Below, piece by piece: positions 2,719 to 24,641 of a DNA stretch of 64,000 nt. The notes below the pieces were generated by a model. That model was not told where the DNA came from and did not search any database. It saw only the letters and a program-made list of their open reading frames with translations. The stretch is taken from the NCBI GenBank assembly GCA_038133845.1, contig JAYPUA010000015.1, positions 2,268 through 66,267 of the forward strand, in the 5' to 3' direction. This stretch comes from Deltaproteobacteria bacterium. GTDB taxonomy: Bacteria; SAR324; NAC60-12. Positions within the stretch are counted from its first letter, which is position 1; each line of letters opens with the position of its first letter. The position numbers and the translations under genes are program-made.

Positions 2719-3492
2719 ATGCCCACAGTCATTTCATTTGCCAGCCAGAAAGGGGGCGTGGGGAAAACCACGTCGGCCATTCACCTCGCCTCAGCCTTTG
2801 CGCTCGGGGGCTACCGAACCTTGCTGATGGACCTCGACCCACAAGGCTCGGTTCACTCGGCCCTGGGCATCTCCAAGCGTCCGGAACGGGGAGTGCAGGA
2901 GTTGTTCTGCGACTCCGAGATCCCGATCAAGGACCTGATTCAGCACAGCGAACACGAGAACCTGGAGTACCTGCTCTCCAACATGGGGCAACTGACGGAG
3001 GAGCGAGAGGTATTGCAGGCCGCCTCGGACTACTACTTTCTGACTCAGCGGCTGGAGGAACTCCCGGAGAATGAGTATGACTTCATCCTGATCGACTCTC
3101 CGGCAGCAATCAACTCCTTGAGCATCAACGGCGTGATCGCCGCAGATCTGGTCATCGTTCCGCTCCAGTGCGAGGCCTTGGCCATCAAGTCGCTCAAGCG
3201 CTTCCTGTCGGCCTTCCGCGAGTTGCAGAGCAGCGTGGAACCCAACCTCCGAATCGCCGGGGTGCTGCTGACCATGTACAATCGGGGGATTCGTGCGCAC
3301 CAGCAGGTGGTGAGGCAGGTCTATCAGGCGCTGGGAGACTCGGTCTTTGAGACCATCATCCCGGAGTGTCCTCACATCGTCGAGGCAAGCGCACTGGGAG
3401 TGGATGTGATTCGGCAGCGCCTCAACTCCATCGGAGCGACGGGCTACATTCGGCTGGCCAATGAGTTGCTGGACCGCTTCCGGTTGCGCTAG
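2719..3492 (+). CDS. parA: ParA/Soj family ATPase
   Basis: Deviant Walker A KGGVGKTT, DLDPQGS, IDSPAA and VIVPLQCE motifs. Confidence 0.9.
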   Translation: MPTVISFASQKGGVGKTTSAIHLASAFALGGYRTLLMDLDPQGSVHSALGISKRPERGVQELFCDSEIPIKDLIQHSEHENLEYLLSNMGQLTEEREVLQAASDYYFLTQRLEELPENEYDFILIDSPAAINSLSINGVIAADLVIVPLQCEALAIKSLKRFLSAFRELQSSVEPNLRIAGVLLTMYNRGIRAHQQVVRQVYQALGDSVFETIIPECPHIVEASALGVDVIRQRLNSIGATGYIRLANELLDRFRLR

Positions 3493-4496
3493 CGCTTCTT
3501 GCGGCTGAGATCAAACAGCCTTCCACGCAGTTCTCCAAGGATTTCGTGGATGGGCATGTCCGGCATTTCCTCCCAACCCATCGTCCGGAGAATGTAGGCC
3601 AGCAGCAACGGCCGCCGCATGCCTCGGTCTTCCCAGATGCGGTGAATCTCCTCATGCTCTCGGGGCAGGGGGCGTCCGTCGATGTCGCGGCGCAAGAGAA
3701 ACTTGAGGGCCGAGTCCGGATACTCGCCAACAAACAGGGCCATCGAGGCCGCCGTGATCTCTCCGTTGCCAAAGACCACGTCTGCTTCGTCATCCGTCAC
3801 CTGAGCGAGCCCCAGTTTGCCTCCTTCCAGTTCCTCCAGATCGTCCAACTCGTCGAGATCTCCCGCAGGGAGTTCGACATCCAGCAGGTTGGCCGCAGAG
3901 ACCTCTTCAACAGAAGTCACAACCACTTCTTCCTCCAACGGTTCCTCCTCGAACTCTTCAGAGAGCGCCGCCGCTGAGGTAACTGTCCCCTCTGAATCGT
4001 CTCCGGCGATCTCCGACTCAACAGGAATCTCCAGGCTCTCTTCCGACAGTTCCTCCTGAACCGAGGCTTCTCCGGCCTCCAGTTCTTCGGCTACTGGGAT
4101 CTCCAGATCCTCCTCGGTGGAGGACTCCATTTCCGGACCTTCCTTCCCTGCGGCGCGGCGCCTGCGACGGTGCCCTTCCAGGTAGTCTCGGACGCGGGTA
4201 AAGGGAGGGAGTGGATTTTCAGGGATGAACTCTGGATCCAGAAAACGTCCTGCTCGGCGCAGTCGTTCATAGGTAACCGCAGGGGTCTGTTCGGACGTGT
4301 CCTCAACAAGTCTTAGGATGTCCTGAGGCATCACCCAGCCACTCGCCGGACGAGCCTTCGCCGGAACTCGGGCGCGGGAGGTCTGACGCGATTCATCGGA
4401 GAGGTGCGGGGATTCCGGATCGTGAACGGAGGCTGGGAGGTGGCGTTTCCAGAAGCCGTCCAGCAGAGCTTCGGCCTGGAAGCCGGAGAGAGGCAT
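3489..4496 (-). CDS. Hypothetical protein with long acidic low-complexity central region
   Basis: 335-aa ORF whose ATG overlaps the stop of the upstream flaG-like gene (TGATG). E/D-rich middle, predicted-helical C-terminal domain. Confidence 0.75.
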   Translation of the reverse strand: MPLSGFQAEALLDGFWKRHLPASVHDPESPHLSDESRQTSRARVPAKARPASGWVMPQDILRLVEDTSEQTPAVTYERLRRAGRFLDPEFIPENPLPPFTRVRDYLEGHRRRRRAAGKEGPEMESSTEEDLEIPVAEELEAGEASVQEELSEESLEIPVESEIAGDDSEGTVTSAAALSEEFEEEPLEEEVVVTSVEEVSAANLLDVELPAGDLDELDDLEELEGGKLGLAQVTDDEADVVFGNGEITAASMALFVGEYPDSALKFLLRRDIDGRPLPREHEEIHRIWEDRGMRRPLLLAYILRTMGWEEMPDMPIHEILGELRGRLFDLSRKKR

Positions 4497-4834
4497 CAGG
4501 CCTTGGTGCGGTAGACCATGCCGACTTCCTTCAGCAAGGCTCCGCTTCGGAGGATCCGTTCGAGGGGGTACTCGTGGAGGACTCGTCCTCCCTTCTGCAA
4601 TTGAATGAGGGTCTTGCCCGCGATCTCGATGGGGACGAACTCCATGGAGCGGGTTCGAGGGTGACGCTGCAGGCGAGAGTTGGCCTGCAGGACCAGGCGC
4701 CGCAGCTTGAGGCGGTCCAGGCGAGACTCTTCGGGCAAGGTGGACTCTGTGCGAGCCGGAGCCACCGGGCTTCCCGATTCAACAATCGGGGCGCTGTGTC
4801 CCACTGCTCCAACGGCATCCATGTTGATCGACAT
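4496..4834 (-). CDS. FlaG-like flagellar protein (divergent)
   Basis: Size 112 aa and C-terminal pattern (GRVLHEYPLERIL...G.VYRTKA) resemble FlaG (vIrqiPpeevl...G.l.d..a); flagellar context. Confidence 0.55.
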   Translation of the reverse strand: MSINMDAVGAVGHSAPIVESGSPVAPARTESTLPEESRLDRLKLRRLVLQANSRLQRHPRTRSMEFVPIEIAGKTLIQLQKGGRVLHEYPLERILRSGALLKEVGMVYRTKA

Positions 4835-4835
4835 C

Positions 4836-5303
4836 TCAGGCCTTGTTCTGACGGCGTAGGTTCATCAGCCGACCGGCACGACCGGCACCAGGCTGAATGT
4901 AGTTGACTTGATTGCGCAGTTGTCCGATCTCCCGAGACAGCTCTTGCCGATCCTTTTGGAGACGGGTCATGAACGAGTTTTCGGCTTCTTGAATCTGCTC
5001 CAGCAGTCGAGCCGATAACCGGAGCTGGCGAACCTCCCGATAGTTCGGGGGGCGCCGATGCCGCGCCCCCCAGCTTTCCATAAGCTGGTCCAGCTTCCGG
5101 AGCTCTTCCATGAGCTGCTCTTTCCGACCGAGCAGGAGTTCCAACTCGGCCGGTTCCATCGGTTCTCGAATCGCAAGCTGCTGCTGACTCAGCTCAACCC
5201 ACTGTTTGAGTTGGTCATTCTTGCGTTCGAGGATCAAGATCAAATCGCTGTCCGCGAGTGCTTCATCACTTGCCAATGCAGAACTCAGCGAAGATTTTTC
5301 CAA
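4836..5303 (-). CDS. FlgN/FliT-like coiled-coil flagellar chaperone (start uncertain)
   Basis: Helical heptad pattern (LLGRKEQLMEELRKLDQ; LLEQIQEAENSF) and flagellar context. The TTG start overlaps the mnmE 3' end, so the real start may be later. Confidence 0.55.
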   Translation of the reverse strand: MEKSSLSSALASDEALADSDLILILERKNDQLKQWVELSQQQLAIREPMEPAELELLLGRKEQLMEELRKLDQLMESWGARHRRPPNYREVRQLRLSARLLEQIQEAENSFMTRLQKDRQELSREIGQLRNQVNYIQPGAGRAGRLMNLRRQNKA

Positions 5304-6633
5304 GCAGGTCGTCCGGAGTGGTCGCTCCGACGATGGCCCCCAAGGCGTTGAGAGCCGTCCTCAGGTCCACCGCGAGGCACTCCTCTCCAACGTCCTGCAC
5401 CAGTCCATCTCTCACCCACTCCAACGCCTCCAGCGCTCGCTCTGCGGACTGCTGTTGTCGCAGGTTGGTGATCCAGATCTCTTCTCCTGCGGGGACCTCG
5501 CCCATCATGGCCTTGCGTACCAGCAAGGCTTCCAGCAATTCCAGACCCTCTCCTGTACGGGCGGAGAGCAACACCTGCTCTCCGGGAAGCTCCGGATGCA
5601 GCCAATGTGGAGGCTGAGAGCAAAGATCCATCTTGTTCAGCACAGTCACTGTGCGCTCTGGATCAGCCTCCTCGAGCAGCTGAAGACTCTCCGGACCGAG
5701 CGGGCGCGAGGCGTCCAGCAGGATCAGGGTCAGATCTGCCTGCTGCCAGGCGTTGCGGGATCGACGAATTCCTTCCTGCTCCACCACATCTGCAGTGGTC
5801 CGGATCCCTGCGGTGTCAATGATCCGGAAGGCGAGGCCTTTGAGGTGCAGTCTTTCTTCCAGACTGTCTCGCGTGGTCCCCGGAATCTCTGTGACGATCG
5901 CCCGCTGTTCTCGGAGCAGCGCGTTCATCAGCGAGGACTTCCCCACGTTGGGTTCGCCGATCAATGCAAGCGACACACCTTCGCGCATCCGGCGTCCCTG
6001 GTCCGCATGTTCCAACATGTGACGCAGGTCTGCAGAGGCTTGATCGATGCGCTTCAGGCAGTCCTCGTGATGGGTGAAGACGGTCCCTTCTTCCGGAAAC
6101 TCGATGCAGGCCTCCACTAGCGCCGCGACCTGTGCCACTTGCTCCTCGATCGCCTCAATCGCACGAAAGAGCTTGCCACGCAGCTGGCGGACTGCCACCT
6201 GACGTCCGGACTCGGAGCGCGCGTGGATCAGGTCCGAGACCGCCTCCACCTGGGTCAGGTCCAGTCGGCCGTTCAGGAAGGCTCTCCGGGTAAACTCTCC
6301 TGGCTCCGCGAGCCGGGCTCCGTTTTCCAAAACCATCCGGACCATGGCTTCCAGCGTCAGCGGGCTGCCGTGGCCTTGAATCTCTACAACCGTCTCCGCC
6401 GTGTAGGAGCGGGGGGCGCGCATCACTGCCACCAGGACCTCATCCAAAGGCTCCCCCGCTTTACTCATGATCCAGCCATGACTCAGCCGATGAGACGGCA
6501 CCCGATGCAGATCGGCTCCCTGAAAGTGTGTGGCGACACACTCCACGGCGCGGGGACCGCTGATGCGAAGGACTCCAATTCCGGATGGCTGCGGAGCCGT
6601 CGCGATGGCGACGATGGTATCGTCGAGGTGCAT
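5266..6633 (-). CDS. mnmE: tRNA modification GTPase MnmE
   Basis: DTIVAIATA, PRSYTAE, GEFTRRAFLNGRLDLTQVEAV, GEPNVGKSS, GTTRD, DTAG, NKMD and C-terminal FCIGK. Confidence 0.97.
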   Translation of the reverse strand: MHLDDTIVAIATAPQPSGIGVLRISGPRAVECVATHFQGADLHRVPSHRLSHGWIMSKAGEPLDEVLVAVMRAPRSYTAETVVEIQGHGSPLTLEAMVRMVLENGARLAEPGEFTRRAFLNGRLDLTQVEAVSDLIHARSESGRQVAVRQLRGKLFRAIEAIEEQVAQVAALVEACIEFPEEGTVFTHHEDCLKRIDQASADLRHMLEHADQGRRMREGVSLALIGEPNVGKSSLMNALLREQRAIVTEIPGTTRDSLEERLHLKGLAFRIIDTAGIRTTADVVEQEGIRRSRNAWQQADLTLILLDASRPLGPESLQLLEEADPERTVTVLNKMDLCSQPPHWLHPELPGEQVLLSARTGEGLELLEALLVRKAMMGEVPAGEEIWITNLRQQQSAERALEALEWVRDGLVQDVGEECLAVDLRTALNALGAIVGATTPDDLLGKIFAEFCIGK

Positions 6634-8096
6634 TACATCAGCGAGTGGACGTGTCTCACCGGAATGGAAGCAGCCTGCACATCCAGCAGCACCCGTAGGG
6701 CATTCTCCCGGATGCGATGGCTGTGGGCCAACAAGGCCATGCTCGCCTCGGTCACAATCTGGCGCCGGGTAAAGTCTGCCAGCTCCTTGGCCAGATCCAC
6801 GTCTCGGACAATTGATTCGGCGCTGCCGACGCTTTCCTGAGTCAGCCGCAAGACCGAATCGTGGTGGTCCAGAGAACGCTGTACCGACCCCAGATATCCG
6901 CGCACCGAAAGGAGCTGCTCCGTTGCACCATCAACCATCCGGACGGCATCGGCAGCCGACTGAGGTGAATCAAAATTGATGTCAGCCAGGCTATTGAACC
7001 CGCTGTTGTTCGGAACCCCTCGTCCCAACGCAGAGGAGTGGATGTTGGCCAGCGTGATCGGCATCTGCTGCCCAGCCTCCGTTCCAATCTGGAAGCGCGG
7101 TGCGTTCTGACGTACCGTGATCGAGCCGACACTTCCGGTCGAACTGCCCAAATAGGCGACCTGCAGGCCACTGGTGAACTCGTTGGAGGCCTTTCCAGTC
7201 AGGTAGGCTCCGTTCCCCATCGCCGGTTCTTCGTTGATGGAGCCCGCGATGTCAGTTCCAAAGTACAGCTCCGGTTCATTGGCCGAACTGGTCAGCACCC
7301 CGTCCTTGGACGTTGTGATCATGAACCCCTTGGCCAGTCCGTAGTCCTTGTGCTCAATCCGGATGTCCTCGTCATCATGCGTGATGGCGAGATTCATGTT
7401 TGCGTCCAGCACTGCCTGCGCGAGCCTGGTGTAGAGGCCTTCGGCACTGCTGAGCGGGTTGGCATGCACCGTCACTGCTCGCCCATCCTCCTCTTCGAGC
7501 ACAATTGTCAGTCCGGAGGCGTCATCATCATCCATGCTGCCTTCAAACACGGCACGTCGAGGCAACCGGGTAACCTCCACCGAGTAACCGTTGACCGGCG
7601 AACTCAGTGTCTCGGCTCCAGAGCGGATGAACACCAGCTCCGAGTTGTTGCTCGTTCCGACCGATCCCTGGCTTCCATCCAGCAGGTTCTTCCGACCAAA
7701 CTGGGTATTCCGTGAGAGGCGGTCGATGCCGTCAAGTGCCGTCTTCAATTCACTTTGAAAACCGGCGACGGTTGCCAGATCGTAGGGATCTGTATTTGCG
7801 GCGGCAAGGGCTGTCTGGCGAAGTCCCATGAGCAGTCGGGTCGCTACATTGATCGCATCGTCTGCCGTCTGGACGATGGAAAGCGAGAGTGCCGTATTCT
7901 CCAGAGCCTGTTCCACACTGGCCAACTGGGCCCGTAGTTGCTCCGACAGGATCAGGCTGGCCGGACCATCCGCAGCCCGGGTGAGTTTGCTTCCTGATGC
8001 CAGGCGTTCCAGAGAACGCGCCAGAGCGTTGTGGTTGACCGCAAGGTAATGAAGCGGATCCGGAGTCAGGCCGTCATTGCGTATTCCCAGAATCAT
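6633..8096 (-). CDS. Divergent long flagellin-like protein (487 aa)
   Basis: SLERLASGSKLTRAADGPASL, NTQFGRKNLLDGS, FQIG and IVRDVDLAKELADF; degenerate termini and a C-terminal extension. Confidence 0.85.
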   Translation of the reverse strand: MILGIRNDGLTPDPLHYLAVNHNALARSLERLASGSKLTRAADGPASLILSEQLRAQLASVEQALENTALSLSIVQTADDAINVATRLLMGLRQTALAAANTDPYDLATVAGFQSELKTALDGIDRLSRNTQFGRKNLLDGSQGSVGTSNNSELVFIRSGAETLSSPVNGYSVEVTRLPRRAVFEGSMDDDDASGLTIVLEEEDGRAVTVHANPLSSAEGLYTRLAQAVLDANMNLAITHDDEDIRIEHKDYGLAKGFMITTSKDGVLTSSANEPELYFGTDIAGSINEEPAMGNGAYLTGKASNEFTSGLQVAYLGSSTGSVGSITVRQNAPRFQIGTEAGQQMPITLANIHSSALGRGVPNNSGFNSLADINFDSPQSAADAVRMVDGATEQLLSVRGYLGSVQRSLDHHDSVLRLTQESVGSAESIVRDVDLAKELADFTRRQIVTEASMALLAHSHRIRENALRVLLDVQAASIPVRHVHSLM

Positions 8097-8189
8097 GACA
8101 GTTCACTCAAGTGAGTGGGTCCGGGATTCAGGAGCCTCCACCTTCCCGGGACCTCCCTGGGGGAAATCCCGGAAGTTGGGTGGAAGTCC

Positions 8190-9101
8190 TCAGGCGTTGA
8201 TCAAGCGCATCACGTTTTGTGGCATCACGTTGGCTTGAGCCAACTGAGCCATGGCGGACTGCGTCATGATCTGGTTCCGGGTGAACGTGGCCATCTCGGA
8301 GGCCATGTCCGTATCCCGGATCACCGACTCGGCTGCGGTCAAGTTCTCCTGAGCGACACGCAGGCTGGTCAGGTTGCTCTCCAGAGTGTTTTTCTGGAAG
8401 GCACCCAGCTCCCCACGGATGGTGGCGATCTGCTGAATCGCTGCGTCCACCATGCCGATGGAATCCTGAGCCCCGCTAGTCGATGTCACGTCGATGTCTG
8501 CCAAGGAGGCGAAGCCACTTCCGTTGCTCACCGACTCTACGGTCTTGCCCACCATCCGGCCGTTTTCACGCTGAATCGTGACGTTGAAGCCCAGATTCTG
8601 GGAAGCGACGCTGGGCAGTTCCACCGAGGTGGTCTGTCCGGCGTTTGCTCCAACCTGGAAGCTCAGGGTGGAGTTCTCTCCATTGAGCAGCTTCTTGCGG
8701 GCAAACTGCGTGTTGTCAGCAATCCGGTCGATGGCCATCAGGGCGTTCTCGATCTCTTGCTGGGAAGCCTCACGCATGGCCTCATCGTTGGTTCCTTCGT
8801 TGGAAGCGGCGATGGCCTGCTGGCGGATGTCGACGAGCAATCGACCCACTTCGTTCAGAGCGCCTTCTGCGGTCTGGACCATGGTGACGGCCGCTTCGTT
8901 GTTGCGAGTTGCCTGCTCCAACCCGCTGACCTGAGCCCGCATGTACTCCGAGATCACCAGGCTGGCAGGGCCATCTGCACCCCGGTTGATCTTCAGACCT
9001 GAAGACAAGCGCTCCAGGCTCTTGCCCATAGCTTCGGAGTTTTGGGTAAGGTTGCGGTGAGCAATGTTGGCACCGACGTTGTTGTTGATGCGAAGAGTCA
9101 T
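8190..9101 (-). CDS. fliC: Short flagellin (303 aa)
   Basis: LRINNN, SLERLSSGLKINRGADGPA, FQVGAN, RGELGAFQ, ESVIRDTDMASEM, AQLAQAN. Confidence 0.95.
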   Translation of the reverse strand: MTLRINNNVGANIAHRNLTQNSEAMGKSLERLSSGLKINRGADGPASLVISEYMRAQVSGLEQATRNNEAAVTMVQTAEGALNEVGRLLVDIRQQAIAASNEGTNDEAMREASQQEIENALMAIDRIADNTQFARKKLLNGENSTLSFQVGANAGQTTSVELPSVASQNLGFNVTIQRENGRMVGKTVESVSNGSGFASLADIDVTSTSGAQDSIGMVDAAIQQIATIRGELGAFQKNTLESNLTSLRVAQENLTAAESVIRDTDMASEMATFTRNQIMTQSAMAQLAQANVMPQNVMRLINA

Positions 9102-9104
9102 AAT

Positions 9105-9200
9105 TCCTCTTTAGGGTCAAGAAGTTGAGTAGAGATTCCTCCTGGAAATAAGCATCTCCTCCAATGAGATGCTCTCAACGTGGGATCCACCTTCCGATGG
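9105..9200 (-). promoter_or_regulatory. Flagellin 5' leader with GGA-containing hairpin (putative CsrA sites)
   Basis: Minus strand AGCATCTC-ATTGGAG-GAGATGCT stem with GGA in the loop, plus CCAGGAGGAA. Similar to the leader of the 12613 flagellin. Confidence 0.4.
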
Positions 9201-9301
9201 TGTCGCTTAGAACCTGATGTCAATTTCAGGCCTTTCCCATGCTCCTCTTGGAGCTGCGACTGACGAAACCTGCTCGGAACCTCCGCAACCGGCTAAGGAG
9301 C

Positions 9302-9323
9302 GGACCACCGTCCATGGCAATCC
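9302..9323. promoter_or_regulatory. Conserved 22-nt motif ~200 bp upstream of flagellin, copy 1
   Basis: GGACCACCGTCCATGGCAATCC; 20/22 identical to 12810-12831. Confidence 0.55.
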
Positions 9324-9370
9324 GCGTAAGCGGGAACCGAGGCTTTCGCCACAATAAAGACGTGTTGCCT

Positions 9371-9682
9371 TCAGCAGTACTGCGTTGACAACAGACGTTG
9401 CAAGGCCTGAGACGCCTGCTCCAGTCCCAGCCCGGAGCCTTCACTGCCGGAAGGGGCCGAGGCCGCCAGCGCACTTGCAACAGGGAGCTTGATGGAGACC
9501 GGTCCCAAGGCATCAAGCCGGGAACCCAGCCGGGATTCTCGATTCACACAACGGTCAATCGAGTCCAATGCGGCCTGAACCGCAAAAGCCTCACCTATCC
9601 CGGGGGATTCCGGGATCTCGGATTGCGGCTTTAACACGCGTCGGAGGTTCAGTTCCGAGCGGTCTTGAGGATCACGCCACAT
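9371..9682 (-). CDS. Orphan small protein A (103 aa), paralog of 12852-13190
   Basis: ATG preceded by AGGAG. Shares MW.D, ALDSIDR/ALESIDR and C-terminal E.A.QAL..LLST..C with its paralog. Confidence 0.7.
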   Translation of the reverse strand: MWRDPQDRSELNLRRVLKPQSEIPESPGIGEAFAVQAALDSIDRCVNRESRLGSRLDALGPVSIKLPVASALAASAPSGSEGSGLGLEQASQALQRLLSTQYC

Positions 9683-9706
9683 GTGCTTGCTCCTGAAAGT
9701 TGAGAA

Positions 9707-9771
9707 GCCCCCTTCTCCTGAATCAAGGTGCCTTCCCATGGCTCGCTCGAAACTTGAGCGGAGAAGGGGGC
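9707..9771. ncRNA. Conserved structured element, copy 1 (unknown class)
   Basis: 12-bp closing stem GCCCCCTTCTCC/GGAGAAGGGGGC around a core shared with 13214-13280. Confidence 0.5.
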
Positions 9772-9945
9772 AATAGTGGTAAAATAAGAGCTTCCTCGAG
9801 TCGTCACCAACGGGACTGCTGGAGGAAGTTTACGATGCGCGGGCCAAGCGGCATCGAATTCCAGAGAGCGTGTGGAGAGAAAGGTCCTCCGGACCGCTCC
9901 TGTATTTCGAGGGACCTTCCGTGAATCGGAGAGCCCCTGAGAGTC

Positions 9946-10167
9946 TCAGCACCCGCATTTGCGGGTAAAAAAGTTCTTGATCGCGCGTTGTTCATCTTCA
10001 ATCGCGCTGCAGTAGTTCGAGCAGCCAGAGTTGGTGCTGCAAGCTCCGAGGCCGATCAGGAGGACCAGGAGGCCTCCGATCAGGCGAATTCTCCAAGAGA
10101 GCGTTTCCCTGGAGCAGCTGTCTCCTGGGTTCAGTCTCAACATCGTGGAGTGCACCAGGCTCCTCAT
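9946..10167 (-). CDS. Small Cys-rich lipoprotein
   Basis: ATG directly follows the stop of the M24 gene. Hydrophobic stretch with lipobox LGAC; mature 31-aa peptide with 4 further Cys. Confidence 0.55.
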   Translation of the reverse strand: MRSLVHSTMLRLNPGDSCSRETLSWRIRLIGGLLVLLIGLGACSTNSGCSNYCSAIEDEQRAIKNFFTRKCGC

Positions 10168-11319
10168 TCAACAAACCACCAAATCCAGTGGGTGCCGGGA
10201 GAGCCGTTCGCACCCGGACTCCGTCACCACCACCGTGTGTCCCAGGCTCATCGCCTGATGGGCGGCGCTATCCATCAGGATCATGTGGAGGAAGAACACC
10301 ATGTTCGGCTCGGCCACTACCGGGTTGCCGTGATAGAACATGGGCCAATCCATCCAGTTCGGCGCGAAGGTGGTCCCCAGGCTGTAGCCTGTCGCGTTGA
10401 GTCGATGCTCCCGCATTCCGGCGGCATCACACGTTTGGGCGTAGGCATCAAAGACCGCCCCCACAGGGTTCCCCGGGACCAGTGCCGCCTCGCAGGCTTC
10501 CAGCGCTGCCACACAGACCTCGTGCATGAGCCGGTGCCGAGCCGTTGCCCGGCCGACCGGGATCGTGCGCATCATGGCCGCGTGGTAGTGTCGATACACT
10601 CCGGCCCACTCCAGCGTGAGTTGATCCTCCGGGTCCAGTTGGCGTCGTCCGGTGGAGTAACGGCAGAGCAGCGCCTGCGCTCCGGAGCCAATGATGAACT
10701 CGTTTCCCGGATAGTCCCCGCCTCCTCGAAAGATGGTCCCTTGCATCACGGCAAGGAGTTCTCCCTCGTCGGTGCCTGGCTCCAGAATCCGGAAGGCTTC
10801 ATCCAGCGCATCGTCTGCCAGCTCGGCTGCACGCCGGACGTAGCTCAGTTCCGCAGGGCTCTTGACCACCCGCAACTGGCTCACCAGTAGCGAGGCGTCT
10901 TCCAGCACGCAGAAGTTCCGGAGCGCTTGCTCCAGCCGCTTCCCGTTTGCCGCAGTCAGTCCATAGGCGTCGTACTCCACCCCTAGAGATTTTCCGGCAC
11001 ATCCAAACTCGCGGAGGGTCTCCCGGAGTTCTTCCGCAGGGTTTGCCCCAAATCCATCCGTCCAGATTCGAATGTCAGTGATCATGGACGTCTGCTGCGC
11101 CTGTCGCAGGTCCGCAGAGCGTGTCAACAGGAACAGGTCTCCGTTGACTCCCAGATACAGACACTGAAAGAACACATAGCCAAAGGAGTCGTAGCCCGTG
11201 AGATAGAACATGCTCTCCTGACGGAAGATCAAGATCCCGTAAAGGTTCGCCTGTTCCAGGGAGAAACAGACCTGCTCACGTCGTGTTGCCAGTTCTTCCC
11301 GCGAAAAGTGCAGGGGCAT
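10168..11319 (-). CDS. M24 family hydrolase, creatinase/ectoine-hydrolase-like
   Basis: Creatinase N-domain (QESMFYLTGYD), LRVVKSPAEL and pita-bread fold motifs; canonical metal ligands replaced. Confidence 0.85.
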   Translation of the reverse strand: MPLHFSREELATRREQVCFSLEQANLYGILIFRQESMFYLTGYDSFGYVFFQCLYLGVNGDLFLLTRSADLRQAQQTSMITDIRIWTDGFGANPAEELRETLREFGCAGKSLGVEYDAYGLTAANGKRLEQALRNFCVLEDASLLVSQLRVVKSPAELSYVRRAAELADDALDEAFRILEPGTDEGELLAVMQGTIFRGGGDYPGNEFIIGSGAQALLCRYSTGRRQLDPEDQLTLEWAGVYRHYHAAMMRTIPVGRATARHRLMHEVCVAALEACEAALVPGNPVGAVFDAYAQTCDAAGMREHRLNATGYSLGTTFAPNWMDWPMFYHGNPVVAEPNMVFFLHMILMDSAAHQAMSLGHTVVVTESGCERLSRHPLDLVVC

Positions 11320-11687
11320 GACTCCTGTTCAGTTCAGAGTGAAAGCCGAGGCCGCCTTGATGAAGACTCCGGAGCGTTCCGGAGTTCACGGGGCAACCTT
11401 TTGGAACAGGGCGAGACACAATCGAAAGCCGAGGCTTGCGTTTGGTTCTGTACGGACAGATTCGTTGTGCCGCCCCCTGATCCCGAAAGTCACGAGATTC
11501 CGGAGGGCTTGGCTTCCATGCACGGAACAACAGATGTCAAAGAACAAGGCGACAGAGGCGGTCACTTCCTGTGGTGCCTGTGGGCGTCACCAGTGAAGGT
11601 CCGAAGGGGCTCTTCAGGCCTTCGCTGGAGGCGTCCAGCACAACGTCGGGAGCTTAGAGTCGAAGCTCCAAGCTCCCGGCGAATCCT

Positions 11688-11712
11688 TCCAGGCAGGGAG
11701 TCCCTGCCTGGA
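11688..11712 (-). terminator. Strong hairpin downstream of the flagellin at 11723
   Basis: TCCAGGCAGGG/CCCTGCCTGGA 11-bp stem 10 nt after the stop. Further stems at 11648-11677. No clear U-tract. Confidence 0.45.
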
Positions 11713-11722
11713 GAGAGTGTGT

Positions 11723-12613
11723 TTAGCCGTTGATCAGCCGAAGCACATTTTGCGGGTTCATGTTCGCCTGGGCCAACTGAGCCGTTGCCGACTGGGTCAT
11801 GATCTGGTTGCGGGTGAACGTCGCCATCTCCGCAGCCATGTCCGCATCGCGGATGACCGACTCGGAAGCCTGCATGTTCTCCTGAGCAATGCGCAGGCTG
11901 TTCAGGTTGCTCTCCAAGGTGTTCTTCTGGAAGGCACCCAAACGACCTCGGGTGGAGGCCACCTGCTCAATCGCCGCATCCACCAGGTTGATGGTGTCCT
12001 GTGCCCCCAGCGTGGTGGTCACGTCCACGTCCGAGAGCGAGGCAAAACCGCTCCCGTTAGCCACAGCATTCTTGGCTCCGGTGGCCGGATCAACATCGAA
12101 TCCCAACTGGTTGGTTGCCATGTTGGGGACGTCGATGGTCACGGTCTGTCCGGAGTTGGCACCGACCTGAAAGGTCAGGGTCGGGTTGCTTCCGTCCAGG
12201 ATGTTCTTGCGGCCGAACTGGGTATCGCGAGAGATGCGGTCAATGGACTGCAGCGCGTTTTCGATCTCCTGCTGAGAGGCCTCTCGCATCGCCGGATCGT
12301 TGGTTCCTTCGTTGGCAGCGGCAACCGCTTGCTGTCGAACTGAAACCAGAAGTTTGCCCACCTCATCCAGTGCACCTTCTGCGGTCTGGACCATGTTGAC
12401 GGCGGTCTCGTTGTTGCGAGTTGCTTGCTCCAGGCCGTTGACCTGAGCCCGCATGTACTCGGAGATCACCAGAGCGGCAGGTCCATCTGCACCACGATTG
12501 ATCTTCATTCCGGAAGACAGGCGCTCCAGGCTCTTGCCCAAGGCTTCATTGTTGCCCACGAGGTTGCGGTGGGCGTTCATGGCACTGATGTTGTTGTTGA
12601 TTCGAAGAGACAT
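11723..12613 (-). CDS. fliC: Short flagellin (296 aa), close paralog of 8190-9101
   Basis: SLRINNN, SLERLSSGMKINRGADGPA, FQVGAN, RGRLGAFQKNTLESN, ESVIRDADMAAEM. Confidence 0.95.
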   Translation of the reverse strand: MSLRINNNISAMNAHRNLVGNNEALGKSLERLSSGMKINRGADGPAALVISEYMRAQVNGLEQATRNNETAVNMVQTAEGALDEVGKLLVSVRQQAVAAANEGTNDPAMREASQQEIENALQSIDRISRDTQFGRKNILDGSNPTLTFQVGANSGQTVTIDVPNMATNQLGFDVDPATGAKNAVANGSGFASLSDVDVTTTLGAQDTINLVDAAIEQVASTRGRLGAFQKNTLESNLNSLRIAQENMQASESVIRDADMAAEMATFTRNQIMTQSATAQLAQANMNPQNVLRLING

Positions 12614-12809
12614 AGGGACCTTTTTATTGGTAAGGTATTGTCAATTATCCTTCTTGGAAAATAGGCACAATCTCATCCATGTGATGGCCTGTATCAGGGG
12701 TTGCCTTTAGGCAACTGCCGCGGGAATGTTTGGTTCCATCCTCAATTCCTCCCTCCACCGGAAACCGGTGGGCGGTACCGGAGCATTTCCGAAGAAATCC
12801 TCGCGGGAA

Positions 12810-12831
12810 GGACCGCCGTCCATGGCAGTCC
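12810..12831. promoter_or_regulatory. Conserved 22-nt motif ~200 bp upstream of flagellin, copy 2
   Basis: GGACCGCCGTCCATGGCAGTCC; 197 bp from the ATG versus 201 bp for copy 1. Confidence 0.55.
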
Positions 12832-12851
12832 TAAAAAATCAAAACGATCTG

Positions 12852-13190
12852 TCAGCAGCGATCTGTGGAAAGCAGTTGGCGCAGGGCCTGGGCCGCTCGC
12901 TCCATGCGGGCGTTGACCTCTGCACGCTGGCTTTGCCAGTGATCCTGCCTCGGATTGCTCACCGGATCTGCATCGGTCTCCGACGAGGGGGCGTTTGCAC
13001 GAATTCTCCGTTTCCTGCTTACAGGAATTTTTGAATCCGGAACGCCGTGGCGGTCAATCGATTCCAGCGCCATGCGGATGGCTTCCGATTCGCGCTCGGC
13101 AGCACTCGCAGGGGACTGGAGCTTTACAGTCTGTGAGGAATCCGGAGCATCCCACTCTGGGACATCCAAGTAGTCATTCCACATATTCAT
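12852..13190 (-). CDS. Orphan small protein B (~110 aa), paralog of 9371-9682
   Basis: MNMWNDY...AIRMALESIDR...MERAAQALRQLLSTDRC. Start at 13190 or 13184. Confidence 0.7.
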   Translation of the reverse strand: MNMWNDYLDVPEWDAPDSSQTVKLQSPASAAERESEAIRMALESIDRHGVPDSKIPVSRKRRIRANAPSSETDADPVSNPRQDHWQSQRAEVNARMERAAQALRQLLSTDRC

Positions 13191-13213
13191 CTCAGCATTG
13201 GTGAATGCGAAGA

Positions 13214-13280
13214 GCCTCTTCCCTGAGCCGTCTAAGGTACCGTTCCATGGCTCGCTTGGACGAAACTCGAGGGAAGAGGC
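13214..13280. ncRNA. Conserved structured element, copy 2 (unknown class)
   Basis: 10-bp closing stem GCCTCTTCCC/GGGAAGAGGC; core AAGGT.CC.T.CCATGGCTCGCT...CGAAACT.GAG shared with copy 1. Confidence 0.5.
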
Positions 13281-13521
13281 AAATCCTCCTACTCCGTCCA
13301 ATGGAGATCCCGGCACGTACTTTCCGCTCAATGGAAAGTGGGTTGTAAGAGTTCTGTAGCGAACTCCGACCTCATCCACGAGGCCTCGCACCTGGATTGC
13401 TCCACGGCACAGGGTGAGACACGGCTTGATGTCCCTCCCTGTCACGCGGAAGGCTCCGGAGTGCAGGAGGTTCTACAGTCCTCGATTGTTCAAGAGCACA
13501 TGGATCTGCTCCATGGGGCAT

Positions 13522-14154
13522 TCAGTCAAAATCTGCAGGCCATTGCGGATTTCGGTGATGTTCAAACATGCGGGCCAGTTGACCGGACGTCACACGTTCG
13601 ATGGACAACTCCGGCAGTTCCTCTTCCCGGAAGAAGGTCGCCTGCTCGGTCTCCAGGTTGTCCACTGGAGTTCCTCCCAGCAGCCGACAGCGAATGAACA
13701 GCTTGTAGACGCTGTATGGGTGCGGAGGCTCATGCGGATGTCGGGCGCGGTCGTAGACCGCCAGCAGCTTCTCGGCTTGAACCCGGTATCCGGATTCCTC
13801 CCAGACTTCGCGCTCCACGGCCTCGCGCGGGGATTCGTTGGGATCCACCCAACCTCCCGGCAAGGTCCAGCGCCCATCGCTACGTTCCCGGACAAGGAGC
13901 AGCGCCTGGTCCCGAAAGATCACTCCACGAGAGTCAACCTTCGGGGTCTGGTATCCTGTTTCCTTTTGAAAGAGCGCGCGGATCTGCTCCGCAGGAAGAC
14001 CGCTTCCGGCCTCCATCATCTCTGCCGCGATCACACGGATCTGTTCATATCGCTCGCGATCAAATCCGTTCTCGGCATACGTGAGCCCATTTTGCGCCAG
14101 CGCCTGAAGCGCTCGCGCCCAGCGGAGCCACTGGGGGTCTTGTGGGTCTTTCAT
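13522..14154 (-). CDS. NUDIX hydrolase with N-terminal domain (YjhB-like)
   Basis: WARALQALAQNGLTY N-domain, YQTPKVDSRG and Nudix box GGWVDPNESPREAVEREVWEESG. Start at ATG 14154. Confidence 0.9.
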   Translation of the reverse strand: MKDPQDPQWLRWARALQALAQNGLTYAENGFDRERYEQIRVIAAEMMEAGSGLPAEQIRALFQKETGYQTPKVDSRGVIFRDQALLLVRERSDGRWTLPGGWVDPNESPREAVEREVWEESGYRVQAEKLLAVYDRARHPHEPPHPYSVYKLFIRCRLLGGTPVDNLETEQATFFREEELPELSIERVTSGQLARMFEHHRNPQWPADFD

Positions 14155-14260
14155 GACCTGAGCATCCTGCCCCGCCAAACCACAGCGAGACGTTCTTGGA
14201 GATCTCCCCAAAGGTGGGGGAACGTTCCTGAAGATCCGTTCCGGATCGGTAAACAGAGCC

Positions 14261-15265
14261 TCAGGAGTTCTGGACGAATTGCTGATACCGACGACTCCAC
14301 CTCCAGTCGCTCCCCGGATGAAGGTGTACCCCTCCAATCCAGAGGTCGTGAGCATGCAGCTTCAGCCAGTCGGCTTCACCATTCAGCACAGCTTCACCAA
14401 GCGGAGTCAGTTCCGCCTGAAACTCACGAAAGACCGGGTCCCGGACTTCACGAGGCACCGCCTGAAACGGCGCGGGCCCATGAATCCGCAAAAGCGGAGC
14501 ATCCGGGGATTCCAAGTCCAGGACTCGCCGCCAGAAAGACCAGTCGCCCATAAAGCGCACCGGCTCTTGGCGTTGGGTCTCCCGGAAAAGCTCCACAACT
14601 CGAGAGGTTCCGGAGGATACGGCCTCCAAGATTCTCTGCTGTGTGAGCGAGAGCCCGGAGTGTTCCTCTGGGAATTCCTCTGCAAGCCGGGTCAGTCCGG
14701 ACTTCAGGAAAGGCAGTTCCGCAAGATCCTGCTGAATCAACCTTCCCATTGATCCAGGAGTCGAAGCGGTAAACGCTACCCAGGCAGTTTTTCCAAGATC
14801 CTGCTGCTCAGGGCGGAGGTCTGTTCGTGCAGCCCACGCCTCCTGCAGCGTCGAAGGAGAGCCGGAGCCCCCCAGGTAATCCGCGACCAGGACCAGACGG
14901 ACCGGTGCGGGTGATGAGCCGGGCATCTGGGGAGTTCCCCGGATATCCGGCAAGGCATCAAGGATCTGCAACAGGTGGAGCTGGTCAAACAGCTCGTGAC
15001 TGTTCCAGATCACGATCTCTTCAGCCGCCTCCAACGCGGAGGTCAGCCGTTCGTCTCGAGCACGCAGTCGTGCCCGGGCGTTCTCCTCAGAATCCCATCC
15101 GCACACCGCGATGAAGCGGGCACGAGTGTCGATCAATTGTTCCGGAGGGAGCCCTCCGGGGACTGGTCCGTCGTGAAGCACGTCCAGCCAGTTGAGAAAA
15201 CTCCCCGGGACTTCAGTCCTGCGAAGCAGGGCAACCGCTGCATCCCCGTTGACCAGGTGCAGCAT
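14261..15265 (-). CDS. DUF1835-domain protein
   Basis: MLHLVNGD, DVLHDGPVPG, RLAEEFP...GLSLTQQRIL and FMGDWSF. Confidence 0.8.
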   Translation of the reverse strand: MLHLVNGDAAVALLRRTEVPGSFLNWLDVLHDGPVPGGLPPEQLIDTRARFIAVCGWDSEENARARLRARDERLTSALEAAEEIVIWNSHELFDQLHLLQILDALPDIRGTPQMPGSSPAPVRLVLVADYLGGSGSPSTLQEAWAARTDLRPEQQDLGKTAWVAFTASTPGSMGRLIQQDLAELPFLKSGLTRLAEEFPEEHSGLSLTQQRILEAVSSGTSRVVELFRETQRQEPVRFMGDWSFWRRVLDLESPDAPLLRIHGPAPFQAVPREVRDPVFREFQAELTPLGEAVLNGEADWLKLHAHDLWIGGVHLHPGSDWRWSRRYQQFVQNS

Positions 15266-15414
15266 GAGGTGCCTTTTCGCAACACATTCTGTCTTCAGGG
15301 AAGCCGCTCATCCATGAGCGGCAGCGAGCCGATCTTTGAAGAGGGCTGGCCTCTTTCAAGAACGGATCTCGCACTGAAGGAGCCTCTTCCAGACTCCATT
15401 TCGCACTCTCACTG

Positions 15415-16953
15415 TCAGCCAAACAGCTGAGAGTCCATCACTTTCAGGTCTGGTGCAACCTGGACCTCGAAGGGCAGATGCTCCAGAACTTCTCGTGAAT
15501 ACTCCACGCCAGGAGCCACTTCCGTCAGCTCCAGGGCCGGCAGTTTCCTGCCTGTCTCAGGGAGCAGTCGAAAGACCGCTCGCTCCGTGATGTACCACAC
15601 GGGTTGCCCGCATTCACGGGCATACTCTCCACTGAAGGTCACCTGCTCGACCTGAGGAACAAACTTCGGGAGCCCCTCACGGAGGATGCGCAGGCGTCCA
15701 TTCCCAACCTCCAACTCGGCCTTGGCCGAGAAGGTTCCGAGAAAATACAGGGCCTTGGCGTTCTGGCTGATGTTGATGAATCCGCCAGCTCCGGCCATCT
15801 TTGGCCCGAATTTGCTTACGTTGACATTTCCGGAGGCATCCAGTTGGGCCATTCCCAGAAACGCCTGGTCCAGCCCGCCTCCGTCATAGAAGTCGAACTG
15901 GTAGGGCTGATCGACAATGGCATCCGGGTTGTTCACCGCTCCGAAGCTCAGTCCGGATGCAGGGACTCCTCCGATGCCGCCCGGCTCAACCGTCATCGTG
16001 ATCCGGGAGAGTTGGCCTTCTTCAGACGCGACAGAGGCGACGCCTTCCGGCATGCCGATTCCCAAATTCACCACGGCCCCGGCTCGCAGCTCTTGAGCCG
16101 CCCGGCGGGCGATCACCTTGCGCGCGTCCAACTCCATCGTCGGTAGCGAGGAGAGCGGACGTCGAATGTCTCCGCAGTACGCTGGATTGAACGGTTCCGT
16201 CAGCGTCTGCCAGTGCTCTTCCGGAGGAGCCACAACCACCTGGTCCACCAGAATTCCTGGAATCTTGACCATCTGCGGAGGCAGACGGTGCTGCTCCGTG
16301 ACACGCTCGACCTGAACGATCACGGTGCCCCCCGAATTTCGGACGGCCTGAGCAATGGAGAGCGCCTCCAGTGTCAACGCCTCACGCTCCATGGTGATGT
16401 TGCCCGACAAATCCGAGGTCGTCCCTCGGATCAGGGCCACATCAATCGGGAAGGCCTTGTAGAACAGCCACTCCCGCCCTTGCAACTCCACCAGCTCCAC
16501 CAGCTCTTCAGTGGTCCGGTCGTTGAGTTTTCCGCCCTCCAGTCGAGGGTCGACGAAGGTCCTCAGTCCCACGTGGGTCAGGACTCCGGGCTTCTTCCCG
16601 GCAATCGCCCGATACAGGTGCGAGATCACGCCCTGAGGCAGACAATAGGCCTCCAGTTCTCCCGCAAGAGCCATCTCTCCGAGCTTGGGCACCAGGCCCC
16701 AGTGTCCGCCCACAACCCGGTGGACCATTCCGGGATGAGCGAAGTGGTTGACTCCACGTCGGTCCCCATCTCCTTGCCCCGCGGCATAGACCACGCTCAG
16801 GCCTCCCGGACCCCCGGTGCTCAGATATCGCGACTCCAAACCGCTCAGCAGATACTCCGGCGACCCGGTGGCCACAAAGCCTCCGGTGGCGATCGTATCT
16901 CCCGAGCGAATCCGGGCAAGCGCGACTTCAAGGGGCACCACCTTGGGTGACAT
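15415..16953 (-). CDS. Acyl-CoA:acetate/propionate CoA-transferase (YdiF/Pct family)
   Basis: [52 protein letters not shown] and ITERAVF. Confidence 0.9.
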
Positions 16954-20458: not shown

Positions 20459-20899
20459 TTATCCTTGGGCGCGGAAGGTCCCGCGTGCAGCCGCCTGGGC
20501 TGCAGCACGCTGCTTCTGCTCCACACTCTGCTGCCGGAGCTGAGTCCAGCCCTGACGCAGGGTATCGGTAATCTTGATCAGTTCTCCAATGATTTCCGGA
20601 TCCTTGCGGAGGTTGGCCTCCACAATGCGGCGGAACATGTACAGGTAGAGTTCACGCAGGTTCTTGCCGACGTCTCCGGTATTCTCCACACGCAAGGTGG
20701 AGAGCAGTTCGTTCACGATGTCTTTGCTCCGCATCAGATAGTTGTGCGTGCCTTCAATGTCGTTGGCCTGGGCTCGGGACTCGGCTTTCTTGAGAAAGCG
20801 GATCATCCCGTCGTAGAGCATGATGATCAAGGTCAACTGATCGGAAGTCTGGACGTTCGTTTGATAGTACGCCCGATAAGACTGGTTGGGGGTGCGCAT
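20459..20899 (-). CDS. fliS: Flagellin export chaperone FliS (copy 2)
   Basis: Y.QTNVQT.DQLTLIIMLYDGMIRFL and NLRELYLYMFRRIVEAN. Confidence 0.9.
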   Translation of the reverse strand: MRTPNQSYRAYYQTNVQTSDQLTLIIMLYDGMIRFLKKAESRAQANDIEGTHNYLMRSKDIVNELLSTLRVENTGDVGKNLRELYLYMFRRIVEANLRKDPEIIGELIKITDTLRQGWTQLRQQSVEQKQRAAAQAAARGTFRAQG

Positions 20900-20914: not shown

Positions 20915-21370
20915 TTACCCTCTAAGATTGACACGTTTGTTGTCTGAAGCGCCGGGAGCCGGACGAACCGGTTGCTGGCCGGGGGCTGCCGTCTTCTGCG
21001 GCGTGCCGATATAGACCCAGGCTTCCCGTAATTCCCTGAGCAAGTCCAAGGCGACCTTGGCTGGCTTCGGATTCTTGTGAATGTTGGCCTCGATGAGTTG
21101 GTTGAACATGAAGTTGTAGAGGCTTTGGAGATTCTTTGCGATCTCTCCTCCCTTCTCCAGGTTCAGCGAGGACATCAGCTCTGCCACAATGTTCTTGGCC
21201 TTGACCAGGGCATTGTGGGTGCGCTCGATCTCATTACGTTGCATGGACTCGAGGGCAAACTGAATGTTCTTGATTGCTCCGTCGTAGAGCATGACGATCA
21301 GCTTGTTCTGATCCAGCGTGTTGACCGCCGCGCGTTTGTAGGCGTTTTGATAACCGCTGTAAGGGTTCAT
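20915..21370 (-). CDS. fliS: Flagellin export chaperone FliS (copy 1)
   Basis: AYKRAAVNT...LIVMLYDGAI, SSLNLEKGGEIAKNLQSLYNFM and LREAW. Confidence 0.93.
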   Translation of the reverse strand: MNPYSGYQNAYKRAAVNTLDQNKLIVMLYDGAIKNIQFALESMQRNEIERTHNALVKAKNIVAELMSSLNLEKGGEIAKNLQSLYNFMFNQLIEANIHKNPKPAKVALDLLRELREAWVYIGTPQKTAAPGQQPVRPAPGASDNKRVNLRG

Positions 21371-24400: not shown

Positions 24401-24641
24401 ACGACTCAACGGAACGGGCTTCCCAGATCTCTGCGCTGTCCAGCGATCCAACCACCTCTTGGAGCTTGTCCAACTCCGCCTTGACGATGCTCCAGGCTTC
24501 GATCTCCTTGAGCTTCTCGTCTTTGCGCTGCTGGATGGGCTCCAGCCTGCGCTTCTCGATGTTGACGAAACGCTCCACGATTTCCTGGGTGTTCATCTTC
24601 GACCCCAGGCCCGTGACCGCGTTCGGATTCAGTTCCGCCAA
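21417..24641 (-). CDS. fliD: Very large flagellar filament cap protein FliD (~1074 aa)
   Basis: N-terminus TGLGSKMNTQEIVERFVNIEKRRL and C-terminal FliD_C features (FVDAYN, LLSDRNL, LQLKFAKLDSTMGRLRSQQSY). Start placed at TTG 24641. Confidence 0.88.
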   Translation of the reverse strand: MAELNPNAVTGLGSKMNTQEIVERFVNIEKRRLEPIQQRKDEKLKEIEAWSIVKAELDKLQEVVGSLDSAEIWEARSVESSNPDVVIARARRDAKPGKTVIAVDSVALSHQIASQGFETEDTRIGEGTVSIKVGDDPEDSPVTITLDEDNNTLEGLRRAINEEDAEVEAFIAKTHGDLPYRLLLTSKRTGAEGRISIEVNLNEENAPDFRNDFDRTSEWKGLDLLPPDVLERGGVGSSTPIIDVAGVYTGEDDIEMVFRVLKPGTIPSAEGVVLGWSDSLGREGQIEINEYNYAPGTPVEVVDGIQLRFSDGEVVGGDDFKVEARAARSPMLWWLNDADRAAKISKPTDWGSKERSGGIQVTGKYEGDQDQNVIFRVEGSGQVGGKKSLILHYEFSGTGERGQLDLSYPYQSESSEERPSDATAYDAKDGEALFDLKFNGESGEAPPTKLPIGNGLFVEIPPGVLRDGDTADIELVAPSSEDWWWLPDGVRGVTGEVDTKAEWRPFEDYDDEEERDLSRPAVEDGIPDYGANVSTAPIEISGEFIGDISKTYTFTVRRRGGVGITRALLLEWQDELGNKGVLNVGEGYRPGESIFFDRGLSLSLGRGDLYEGDSFEINTYTSTMRQAQDLVVRLGASDQGGGLEVRRSENKASDIIPGLDLEFLSSNKELVTVSVIGDTEKARERIRDFVDAYNTYQATSTEVSKFDKSTNTAAPLLSDRNLAQITNDLATTTIATVAGLPQSSNMLFSVGLRINDKGIMSLDEKKLSEKIENEYTSVANLFRSNGESDNPGVTFVGLGDRTRISPDGYKIDVSEVAKKGRFIGEPIPGGMIRVDDSNNVIVIRNNGRSSEPLELRKDVYTVSSLAKSIQKLLNEDKVLGRRGIQVDTYNGGLRFTSGSYGKSSSIEVEPGEKKSLDGLGLAGGTQENGQDVVGTIDGVEAPGRGQLLIGPDDHDSEGLRIYVSLTEKDLMDGPEASVTVTKGVAVKLQEKLQDINSPVDGKYKKLSQDLSEQLSSYDDQLKKMNERIDAKQQQLQLKFAKLDSTMGRLRSQQSYVSQQLSALGGANGGQKKDG

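Follow-up and report, generated by a model that had tools for sequence, protein, structure and literature searches.

Few bacterial proteins are as abundant or as tightly controlled as flagellin, and the known controls exerted after transcription (CsrA-FliW, FlbT/FlaF and FlgM) all come, to our knowledge, from cultured model organisms. In Caulobacter, FlbT and FlaF are small proteins that are encoded beside the flagellin genes and act post-transcriptionally on the flagellin 5' leaders. In Bacillus, Campylobacter, Clostridioides and spirochaetes, flagellin homeostasis depends on the established circuit of CsrA and FliW (PMC6529632, PMC4894983), and the consensus site of CsrA is AUGGA in the apical loop of a hairpin (PMC5207318). 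FlaG and FliS are partners of flagellin at the export stage (PMC11536152). This work deals with a stretch of 64,000 nucleotides (nt) from a Deltaproteobacteria bacterium of the SAR324 lineage (contig JAYPUA010000015.1), hereafter called the window, in which two genes for short flagellins are each preceded by structured RNA elements (E1, E2 and E3) and by a small gene named here the orphan. The resulting cassette, composed of E1, the small gene, hairpins with AUGGA loops plus single-stranded GGA tracts, and the short flagellin gene, is a conserved unit that has been inherited intact in three species. The cassettes suggest an extra, lineage-specific layer of flagellin control, and the novelty lies in a protein family apparently without relatives that is embedded in a flagellin leader of the CsrA type, the whole unit being duplicated.

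The described systems share some features with the cassettes and differ in others. Like the hag leader of B. subtilis and the flaA leader of Campylobacter jejuni, the cassettes contain a hairpin hexaloop A-N-GGA-N closed by a C:G pair together with further GGA sites. Unlike these leaders, they have at least three such hairpins over about 700 nt with a protein gene embedded between them, most of their flagellin Shine-Dalgarno (SD) sites lack GGA, and neither csrA nor fliW was seen in the window or in the fetched SAR324-like loci. FlbT and FlaF are, as the orphans, small proteins encoded beside flagellin genes, but the orphans are acidic, predicted to be disordered and without a Pfam match, and there is one orphan gene per flagellin instead of one pair per cluster. 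The anti-sigma28 factor FlgM resembles the orphan in being small and largely disordered, with helices in the C-terminal half, and in its flagellar locus; however, the orphan shows no sequence match to it, and the flagellins beside the orphans lack sigma28 promoters, whereas the flagellin of 585 amino acids (aa) encoded in the window has one. FlaG and FliS are also small helical proteins of flagellin loci, and they bind flagellin or the export gate. The orphan has no sequence match to either of them, the window already encodes two copies of FliS, and the usual place of the FlaG and FliS genes is after those of flagellin and fliD, whereas the orphan precedes each flagellin.

Layout and inheritance of the cassettes

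The four-part order E1, small open reading frame (ORF), E2 and short flagellin is found twice on the minus strand within positions 8190-13280 of the window. This duplication had been proposed in a first-pass annotation of the same DNA, and all four parts were recovered in both copies with exact coordinates. In cassette A, E1 (9771-9707; fold with a minimum free energy (MFE) of -33.9 kcal/mol, z -4.5) is followed by the orphan A gene (9682-9371, 103 aa, with a Met-Trp start and an AGGAG SD site 9 nt upstream), the E2 hairpin (9325-9300; -15.3 kcal/mol, z -4.0, covariance-model match of 38 bits), the E3 hairpin and GGA site of the flagellin A leader (9172-9136, conserved in the second cassettes of the relatives L007 and L008 described below) and the short flagellin A gene (9101-8190, 303 aa; Flagellin_N 4e-34, Flagellin_C 6e-21). 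Cassette B includes E1 (13280-13214; MFE -35.3 kcal/mol, z -5.1, with the exact core motif), the orphan B gene (13184-12852, 110 aa from Met-Trp, or 112 aa from an alternative ATG at 13190), the E2 hairpin (12832-12809; -16.3 kcal/mol, z -4.6, covariance-model match of 46 bits), the GGA sites of the flagellin B leader (12686-12646, with ACAUGGAUG at 12682-12674 and GAAGGAUA at 12653-12646) and the short flagellin B gene (12613-11723, 296 aa; Flagellin_N 4.5e-36, Flagellin_C 9e-21). All these features are on the minus strand. The DNA alignment of both cassettes has revealed sharp islands of identity amid diverged sequence.

The nearest flagellins in a GTDB set with one genome per species are 78% identical and belong to two metagenome-assembled genomes (MAGs), L007 (labelled "Deltaproteobacteria bacterium") and L008 (labelled "uncultured bacterium"), followed by genomes of the SAR324 cluster at about 63%, which places the window in an uncultured SAR324-like lineage. 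A hidden Markov model (HMM) built from both window orphans was searched against the six-frame translations of 82 fetched loci and matched only L007 and L008, with two matches in each. The orphans of L007 are located at 5402-5737 and 8410-8763, with flagellin starts at 6001 and 9065, respectively, and those of L008 at 3626-3961 and 6521-6874, with flagellin starts at 4231 and 7180. Whether such matches always lie upstream of flagellins had been posed as a check in the first-pass annotation, and they do so in the three species: all six family members (two paralogs per species) are 238-305 nt upstream of a short flagellin and on the same strand.

Beyond these six members, no orphan homologue was found by an exhaustive HMMER search of 1.84 billion representative proteins or by a word-indexed search of 5.8 billion proteins; two extra protein matches (P0024 and P0025) were spurious and correspond to adhesins with immunoglobulin (Ig) repeats. 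A scan of metagenomes with the protein pattern of the orphan confirmed nothing. The equivalent scan with the DNA pattern of E1 produced 28 loci, but cassettes are present in only two of them (L109 and L112), which come from the species of the window; the others are fortuitous matches within GC-rich coding sequence. To judge from public data, the orphan family is restricted to three species, with two paralogs in each.

Orphan A clusters with the second orphans of both relatives and orphan B with their first ones; in the same way, flagellin A is closest to the second flagellins of L007 and L008 and flagellin B to the first. This agreement between orphan and flagellin orthology indicates that the orphan-flagellin unit was duplicated before the species split and that its two genes were inherited together. 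The pairs stayed intact while their surroundings changed: an M24 peptidase gene and a 73-aa lipoprotein-like ORF (9946-11319, minus strand) lie between cassettes A and B in the window species only, and about 1.4 kb of non-coding DNA lies between the two cassettes of L007 (6910-8300) and of L008. Two conserved islands, at 6982-7025 and 7099-7160 of L007, were observed in this inter-cassette DNA of both relatives.

The orphan gene and its product

The orphan ORFs are genuine genes under purifying selection, which the first-pass annotation had made a prerequisite of its proposal. When L007 and L008 are compared, the first orphan pair differs at 12, 9 and 47 sites in codon positions 1, 2 and 3, with a ratio of nonsynonymous to synonymous substitution rates (dN/dS) of 0.12, and the second pair at 17, 12 and 56 sites, with a dN/dS of 0.13. 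The off-frame values are 2.28 and 2.32 for the first pair and 1.88 and 2.20 for the second, and the dN/dS of the neighbouring flagellin is 0.05. None of the six copies of the ORF is interrupted, AGGAG or GGAG is placed 6-9 nt before the ATG in five of them, and Met-Trp is the sole start common to the six orphans. Amino acid polymorphisms within the window species are few and all fall outside the conserved columns; population single-nucleotide polymorphisms in this species were too few to be informative, and the sample was biased, the loci having been picked by exact protein identity.

Some gene calls in the cassettes were rejected. A 197-aa call for ORF B (from a GTG at 13445) is an over-extension through E1 that is not conserved, the conserved start being the Met-Trp at 13184. 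ORFs of 38-47 aa called from the AUG of the E2 loop (MDGGP...; window 12823-12707 on the minus strand, L083 7497-7640 and L084 724-858) are probably not genes, and they were treated as non-coding because only their first 4-5 codons, which are the hairpin itself, are shared between species. Even with a marginal role, the orphan would remain an example of a gene that gene callers start at the wrong site or miss (197, 112 or 103 aa).

The size of the orphan proteins ranges from about 105 to 117 aa in the family, with window members of 103 and 110 aa. Orphans A and B are 36% identical and share an M-W-x-D start, an ALxSIDR middle and an E-x-A-x-QAL-xx-LLST-xx-C end. These three islands, including the terminal Cys, had been noticed in the two window copies in the first-pass annotation and are real in the alignment of six members, in which residues M1, W2, A34, A38, L39, I42, D43, R44, R55, E88, A90, A93, L94, L97, L98, T100 and C103 are invariant. 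Judged by sequence comparison, the orphan protein belongs to no described family. None of the six members matched Pfam or NCBIfam entries, including FlgM (PF04316), up to E=10; family-profile comparisons with FlbT (PF07378), FlaF (PF07309), FliW (PF02623), FliS (PF02561) and FlaG (PF03646) gave no match; and a profile search of the PDB produced only chance matches, with E values of at least 0.3.

The orphans have an isoelectric point (pI) of 4.9-7.9, an acidic N-terminal third, no hydrophobic segment and no signal peptide, and a short Arg-rich stretch (for example RKRRIR or RLRRNRE) follows helix 1. AlphaFold2 predicted helices at residues 29-46 and 83-99 of orphan A with disorder elsewhere, and at residues 24-46 and 74-109 of the B-type orphan of L008, with a predicted local distance difference test (pLDDT) score of up to 93 in the second of these helices and a disordered linker. 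The predicted template modelling (pTM) scores of 0.22 and 0.27 indicate no compact fold, and the predicted helices coincide with the conserved islands. The orphan is thus depicted as an acidic to neutral protein, largely disordered, whose two amphipathic helices are conserved.

RNA elements, promoters and the CsrA consensus

E1 and E2 are conserved structured RNAs of the sense strand, with compensatory changes. The 23-nt core of E1, AGCGMGCCATGGAACGGTACCTT, occurs at only two sites in the 64 kb, both of them in the cassettes, with 0 expected. The E1 fold is common to all six cassettes (z -3.6 to -5.1) and consists of an outer helix of 10-15 base pairs (bp), CU-rich in its 5' arm and GA-rich in its 3' arm, around a small hairpin with AUGGAAC, AUGGACCC or AUGGGAA as the inner loop. 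E1-A has a 12-bp CU/GA outer helix and the inner loop AUGGGAA, and ends about 25 nt before the start codon of orphan A; E1-B has an 11-bp outer helix and the inner loop AUGGAAC. Paired CG to UA changes are found in the outer helix between cassettes, and G:U pairs in the second cassettes of L007 and L008. The E1 elements of these two second cassettes are identical at 63 of 63 positions, while the adjacent ORF differs at 58% of its synonymous sites.

E2 is a stem of 9-10 bp with the hexaloop AUGGAC or AUGGAA in the six cassettes. E2-A (10-bp stem, AUGGAC) is located 46 nt after the stop codon of orphan A, and E2-B (9-bp stem, AUGGAC) 20 nt after that of orphan B. In the E2 alignment 98% of the cells are paired, with two compensatory pairs and one invariant U:G pair, which favours a sense-strand RNA over a DNA palindrome. 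The covariance model of E2 has exactly one match per cassette, and its sole other match is weak and lies in a flagellin leader of the more distant MAG L034. E3 is a hairpin placed 55-75 nt before the flagellin ATG with the loop AUGGACC, AUUGGAG or AUCGGAG, followed by CCAGGAGGA or GAAGGAU; in cassette A it is GCAUCUC-AUUGGAG-GAGAUGC (9172-9152), followed by CCAGGAGGAA (9145-9136). The hairpin of the flagellin B leader is weak in the window species and clear in its orthologues, the first cassettes of L007 and L008.

Conservation between L007 and L008 begins about 100 nt upstream of the first orphan and about 300 nt upstream of the second one and reaches the flagellin start with short dips, and the non-coding DNA around these cassettes is unalignable. 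A search of Rfam gave no match at the gathering score in the window, L007 or L008, and only chance matches at E<=5 in positions 5000-16000.

The cassette loops (E1, E2 and E3) agree with the CsrA consensus in having GGA in an apical loop (A-N-GGA), which is a hexaloop in E2. In loci of Halobacteroidaceae, Bacillaceae and Armatimonadota (L015-L019, L026, L030, L031 and L038; at about 4950-6000), fliW-csrA is located directly upstream of flagellin. The leaders beside these genes have a 5-bp stem with the hexaloop A(A/G)GGA(A/C) closed by C:G, plus a site over the SD sequence, and the geometry of E2 and E3 is that of these leaders. Flagellin leaders of L034 and SAR324 genomes, which are more distant, carry repeated UCAUGGA motifs and a ACAAGGAG SD site. 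On sequence grounds, the cassette hairpins are thus not undescribed in kind, but appear as a CsrA-type element in an unusual arrangement. The module had been regarded as possibly undescribed in the first-pass annotation, and this stands for the protein, which has no described family, but not for the RNA loops, which match the CsrA consensus and the leaders of the fliW-csrA lineages.

Other observations were made in these leaders. In the loci with fliW-csrA, these two genes hold the position that is taken by the orphan in the SAR324-like clade. In L034 (7650-8240), tandem 476-aa flagellins are separated by a 1.4-kb non-coding leader, in which direct repeats of about 110 nt form two pairs and three UCAUGGA motifs are found ahead of the ACAAGGAG SD site. 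A conserved hairpin composed of GCAGUUGCC, a covarying inner stem and GGGAGCUGC is located 150-240 nt upstream of the flagellin ATG in four Lambdaproteobacteria/SAR324-like MAGs (L036 5849-5900, L063 5761-5812, L069 5763-5812 and L077 about 5815-5870), with no Rfam match. The GCAGUUGCC...GGGAGCUGC hairpin may be an undescribed RNA motif of flagellin leaders, and its 10-mer GGCAGUUGCC recurs in the flagellin B leader of the window (12716-12697, minus strand).

The promoters of the window flagellins were also compared. The 585-aa flagellin (24825-26582, minus strand) is preceded by a perfect sigma28 site, TAAA-N15-GCCGATAA, at 26652-26626 (minus strand), and by a second site with 11 of 12 matches at about 26769-26740 (minus strand), 117 nt from the 12/12 site; its leader has about 35 nt and no GGA hairpins. 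In the six cassettes of the window, L007 and L008 there is no sigma28 match of at least 10/12 to TAAA-N14-16-GCCGATAA, which bears out the earlier remark that the short flagellins, as opposed to the long one, lack this consensus. The sigma28 sites and the short, hairpin-free leader of the 585-aa flagellin indicate that the long and short flagellins differ in their control logic. Neither a sigma54 nor a sigma70 consensus was found in the cassettes or ahead of them, and the three species have no promoter block in common. The E2 stem is not followed by a U tract (the tails are CUCCUUAG, UUCCCGCG, UUUCCUUG and CACCCUCA), so it does not qualify as an intrinsic terminator. It is plausible that orphan and flagellin are co-transcribed from a site just upstream of E1.

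Explanations considered and neighbouring genes

The cassettes are tentatively best explained by CsrA-type translational control acting on one mRNA per cassette, with the orphan as a co-expressed protein-binding adaptor. An mRNA starting just upstream of E1 would carry both orphan and flagellin, as neither a sigma28 promoter nor a U-tract terminator is found between the two genes. The hairpins with AUGGA loops would be binding sites for a translational repressor of the CsrA family, as in leaders of the hag/flaA type, and the synthesis of orphan and flagellin would thereby be tied to the assembly state of the flagellum. The orphan itself would work through protein-protein contacts of its two helices, with flagellin, FliS, FliW/CsrA and the export gate as candidate partners. 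Its partner would be common to both paralogs, and the orphan would be an extra checkpoint or adaptor following the logic of FliW or FlgM, rather than an RNA binder or a paralog-specific switch. Paralogs A and B do not differ in their conserved protein islands or hairpin loops in any of the three species, which argues for a shared partner rather than for one dedicated regulator per flagellin.

Several points weigh against CsrA-type control with an adaptor. Neither csrA nor fliW was found by tblastn (E<=1) in the 64-kb window, which covers a small portion of the genome, or in the fetched SAR324-like loci. The flagellin SD sequence is GAGGAA only in cassette A of the window and AAGAGGU or AAAAGGU, which lack GGA, in the other five cassettes, so the classical CsrA site overlapping the SD sequence appears to be missing in five of the six. 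GGA is enriched 2-3 times in each orphan-to-flagellin spacer, but TCC is as enriched as GGA, as expected of any hairpin-rich RNA. No cassette promoter has been identified, co-transcription is only presumed, and E2 could instead act as a U-less terminator. In addition, the family spans just three species, and the synteny accordingly rests on few independent events. A regulatory function of the orphan and a differential expression of the flagellins are what we infer from the cassettes. Should the orphan have a role in flagellin homeostasis, that circuit would gain a new protein component, and the case would be a clean example of a regulatory gene arising and becoming fixed beside its target; the three well-defined RNA elements make the model testable without culturing the organism.

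A more speculative proposal, which is rather unlikely as a whole, considers the orphan as a lineage-specific disordered protein, born in a long flagellin leader or from a decayed flagellin, that would be a novel type of flagellin checkpoint factor, translated together with its flagellin from the mRNA with AUGGA hairpins, and would either replace FliW as the antagonist or partner of CsrA or recognise the hairpins itself.

As a version of the dedicated module per flagellin, allowing differential flagellin expression, that the first-pass annotation had favoured, each orphan could also be a dedicated regulator that binds the hairpins of its own mRNA in the manner of FlbT/FlaF. The strict one-to-one adjacency with co-inheritance, the Arg-rich stretch after helix 1 and the lack of a csrA gene found locally are in line with this proposal, but paralog-specific recognition is not visible, since the AUGGA[AC] loops and the protein islands are alike in the paralogs of the three species. 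The pI of 4.9-7.9 is unlike that of typical RNA binders, and no FlbT or FlaF match exists. One dedicated regulator per flagellin is thus unsupported and is considered unlikely.

Equally doubtful is an adjacency without shared function, in which the role of the orphan would be unrelated or marginal, E1 would be a stabiliser or attenuator at the 5' end of the mRNA and E2 a U-less terminator splitting two transcripts. The GC-rich E2 stems of 9-10 bp just after the stop codon, the moderately U-rich tract after E1 and the very narrow distribution of the family are all compatible with it. However, a terminator or stabiliser needs no conservation of the loop, and AUGGA(A/C) is invariant; the conservation between L007 and L008 spans the whole spacer up to the flagellin start, and the pairs have been kept linked through rearrangement.

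The resemblance between orphan helix 1 and the ND1 segment of flagellin (EIENALxxIDRI) raises the alternative that the orphan is a decayed mini-flagellin or mimic, relic of a tandem flagellin copy, that titrates FliS or FliW. The orphan retains an ND1-like helix (ALxxIDR) and a C-terminal helix similar to CD0 (QALRxLL), with the islands in the same order as in flagellin. All the sub-threshold matches of the orphan HMM (E 0.16-7) fall on the ND1 segment, and the same 14 columns are aligned by hhalign. Tandem flagellins with a spacing of about 1 kb and no intervening ORF are found in relatives, and two FliS paralogs are encoded nearby. Nevertheless, the hhalign comparison with the local flagellins has a probability of 2.6% over only these 14 columns, a lead and not evidence of homology, and no Flagellin_N or Flagellin_C (PF00669/PF00700) was detected at E<=10, so that homology between orphan and flagellin is unsupported. 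A common origin of the orphan and flagellin leaders was rejected as well, because Smith-Waterman alignments were no better than those of shuffled sequences (z -0.1 to 1.6). A mimic is accordingly very unlikely.

A similarly low likelihood is assigned to the orphan as a substrate of flagellar type III export, either a FlgM-like anti-sigma or checkpoint factor or a minor secreted component, whose export at hook completion would release flagellin expression. Its small size, predicted disorder, C-terminal helices and lack of signal peptide and membrane segment are as in FlgM, and the neighbourhood is flagellar, but no FlgM match was found in Pfam/NCBIfam, and such a factor would have no sigma28 promoter to act on in the cassettes. 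Flagellar type III substrates have degenerate export signals, unlike the strictly conserved Met-Trp-x-Asp start of the orphans.

Finally, that the ORFs are untranslated and conserved only as RNA, a notion encouraged by the disagreement of gene callers on the start of ORF B (197, 112 or 110 aa) and by the lack of orphan homologues outside the clade, is effectively refuted by the third-position bias, by dN/dS values of 0.12-0.13 in frame against approximately more than 1.9 off frame in both paralogs, by the ORF being open in the six copies and by the SD site in five of them.

The window encodes four flagellins, which are the short A and B, a divergent one of 487 aa (6633-8096) directly after flagellin A, and the 585-aa flagellin. 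Two adjacent FliS paralogs of 146 and 151 aa (20459-20899 and 20915-21370, minus strand) adjoin the gene of an unusually long FliD (1116 aa, 21417-24767, minus strand), and each FliS chaperone may serve a different flagellin class. In the window as a whole there are 23 AUGGA hairpins, compared with 8.5 in simple shuffles, a difference that is not decisive since real sequence forms more hairpins than shuffled sequence. One of these hairpins, GCCGCUC-AUGGAU-GAGCGGC (15303-15322, minus strand), is located about 40 nt upstream of a DUF1835-like gene and may be due to chance. Two adjacent ones (5070-5116, minus strand), which may also be fortuitous, lie inside the 146-aa ORF after mnmE. This ORF belongs to a group of three consecutive genes (3489-5303, minus strand; 146, 112 and 335 aa) that lack a Pfam match and whose synteny extends to L084 and L002.

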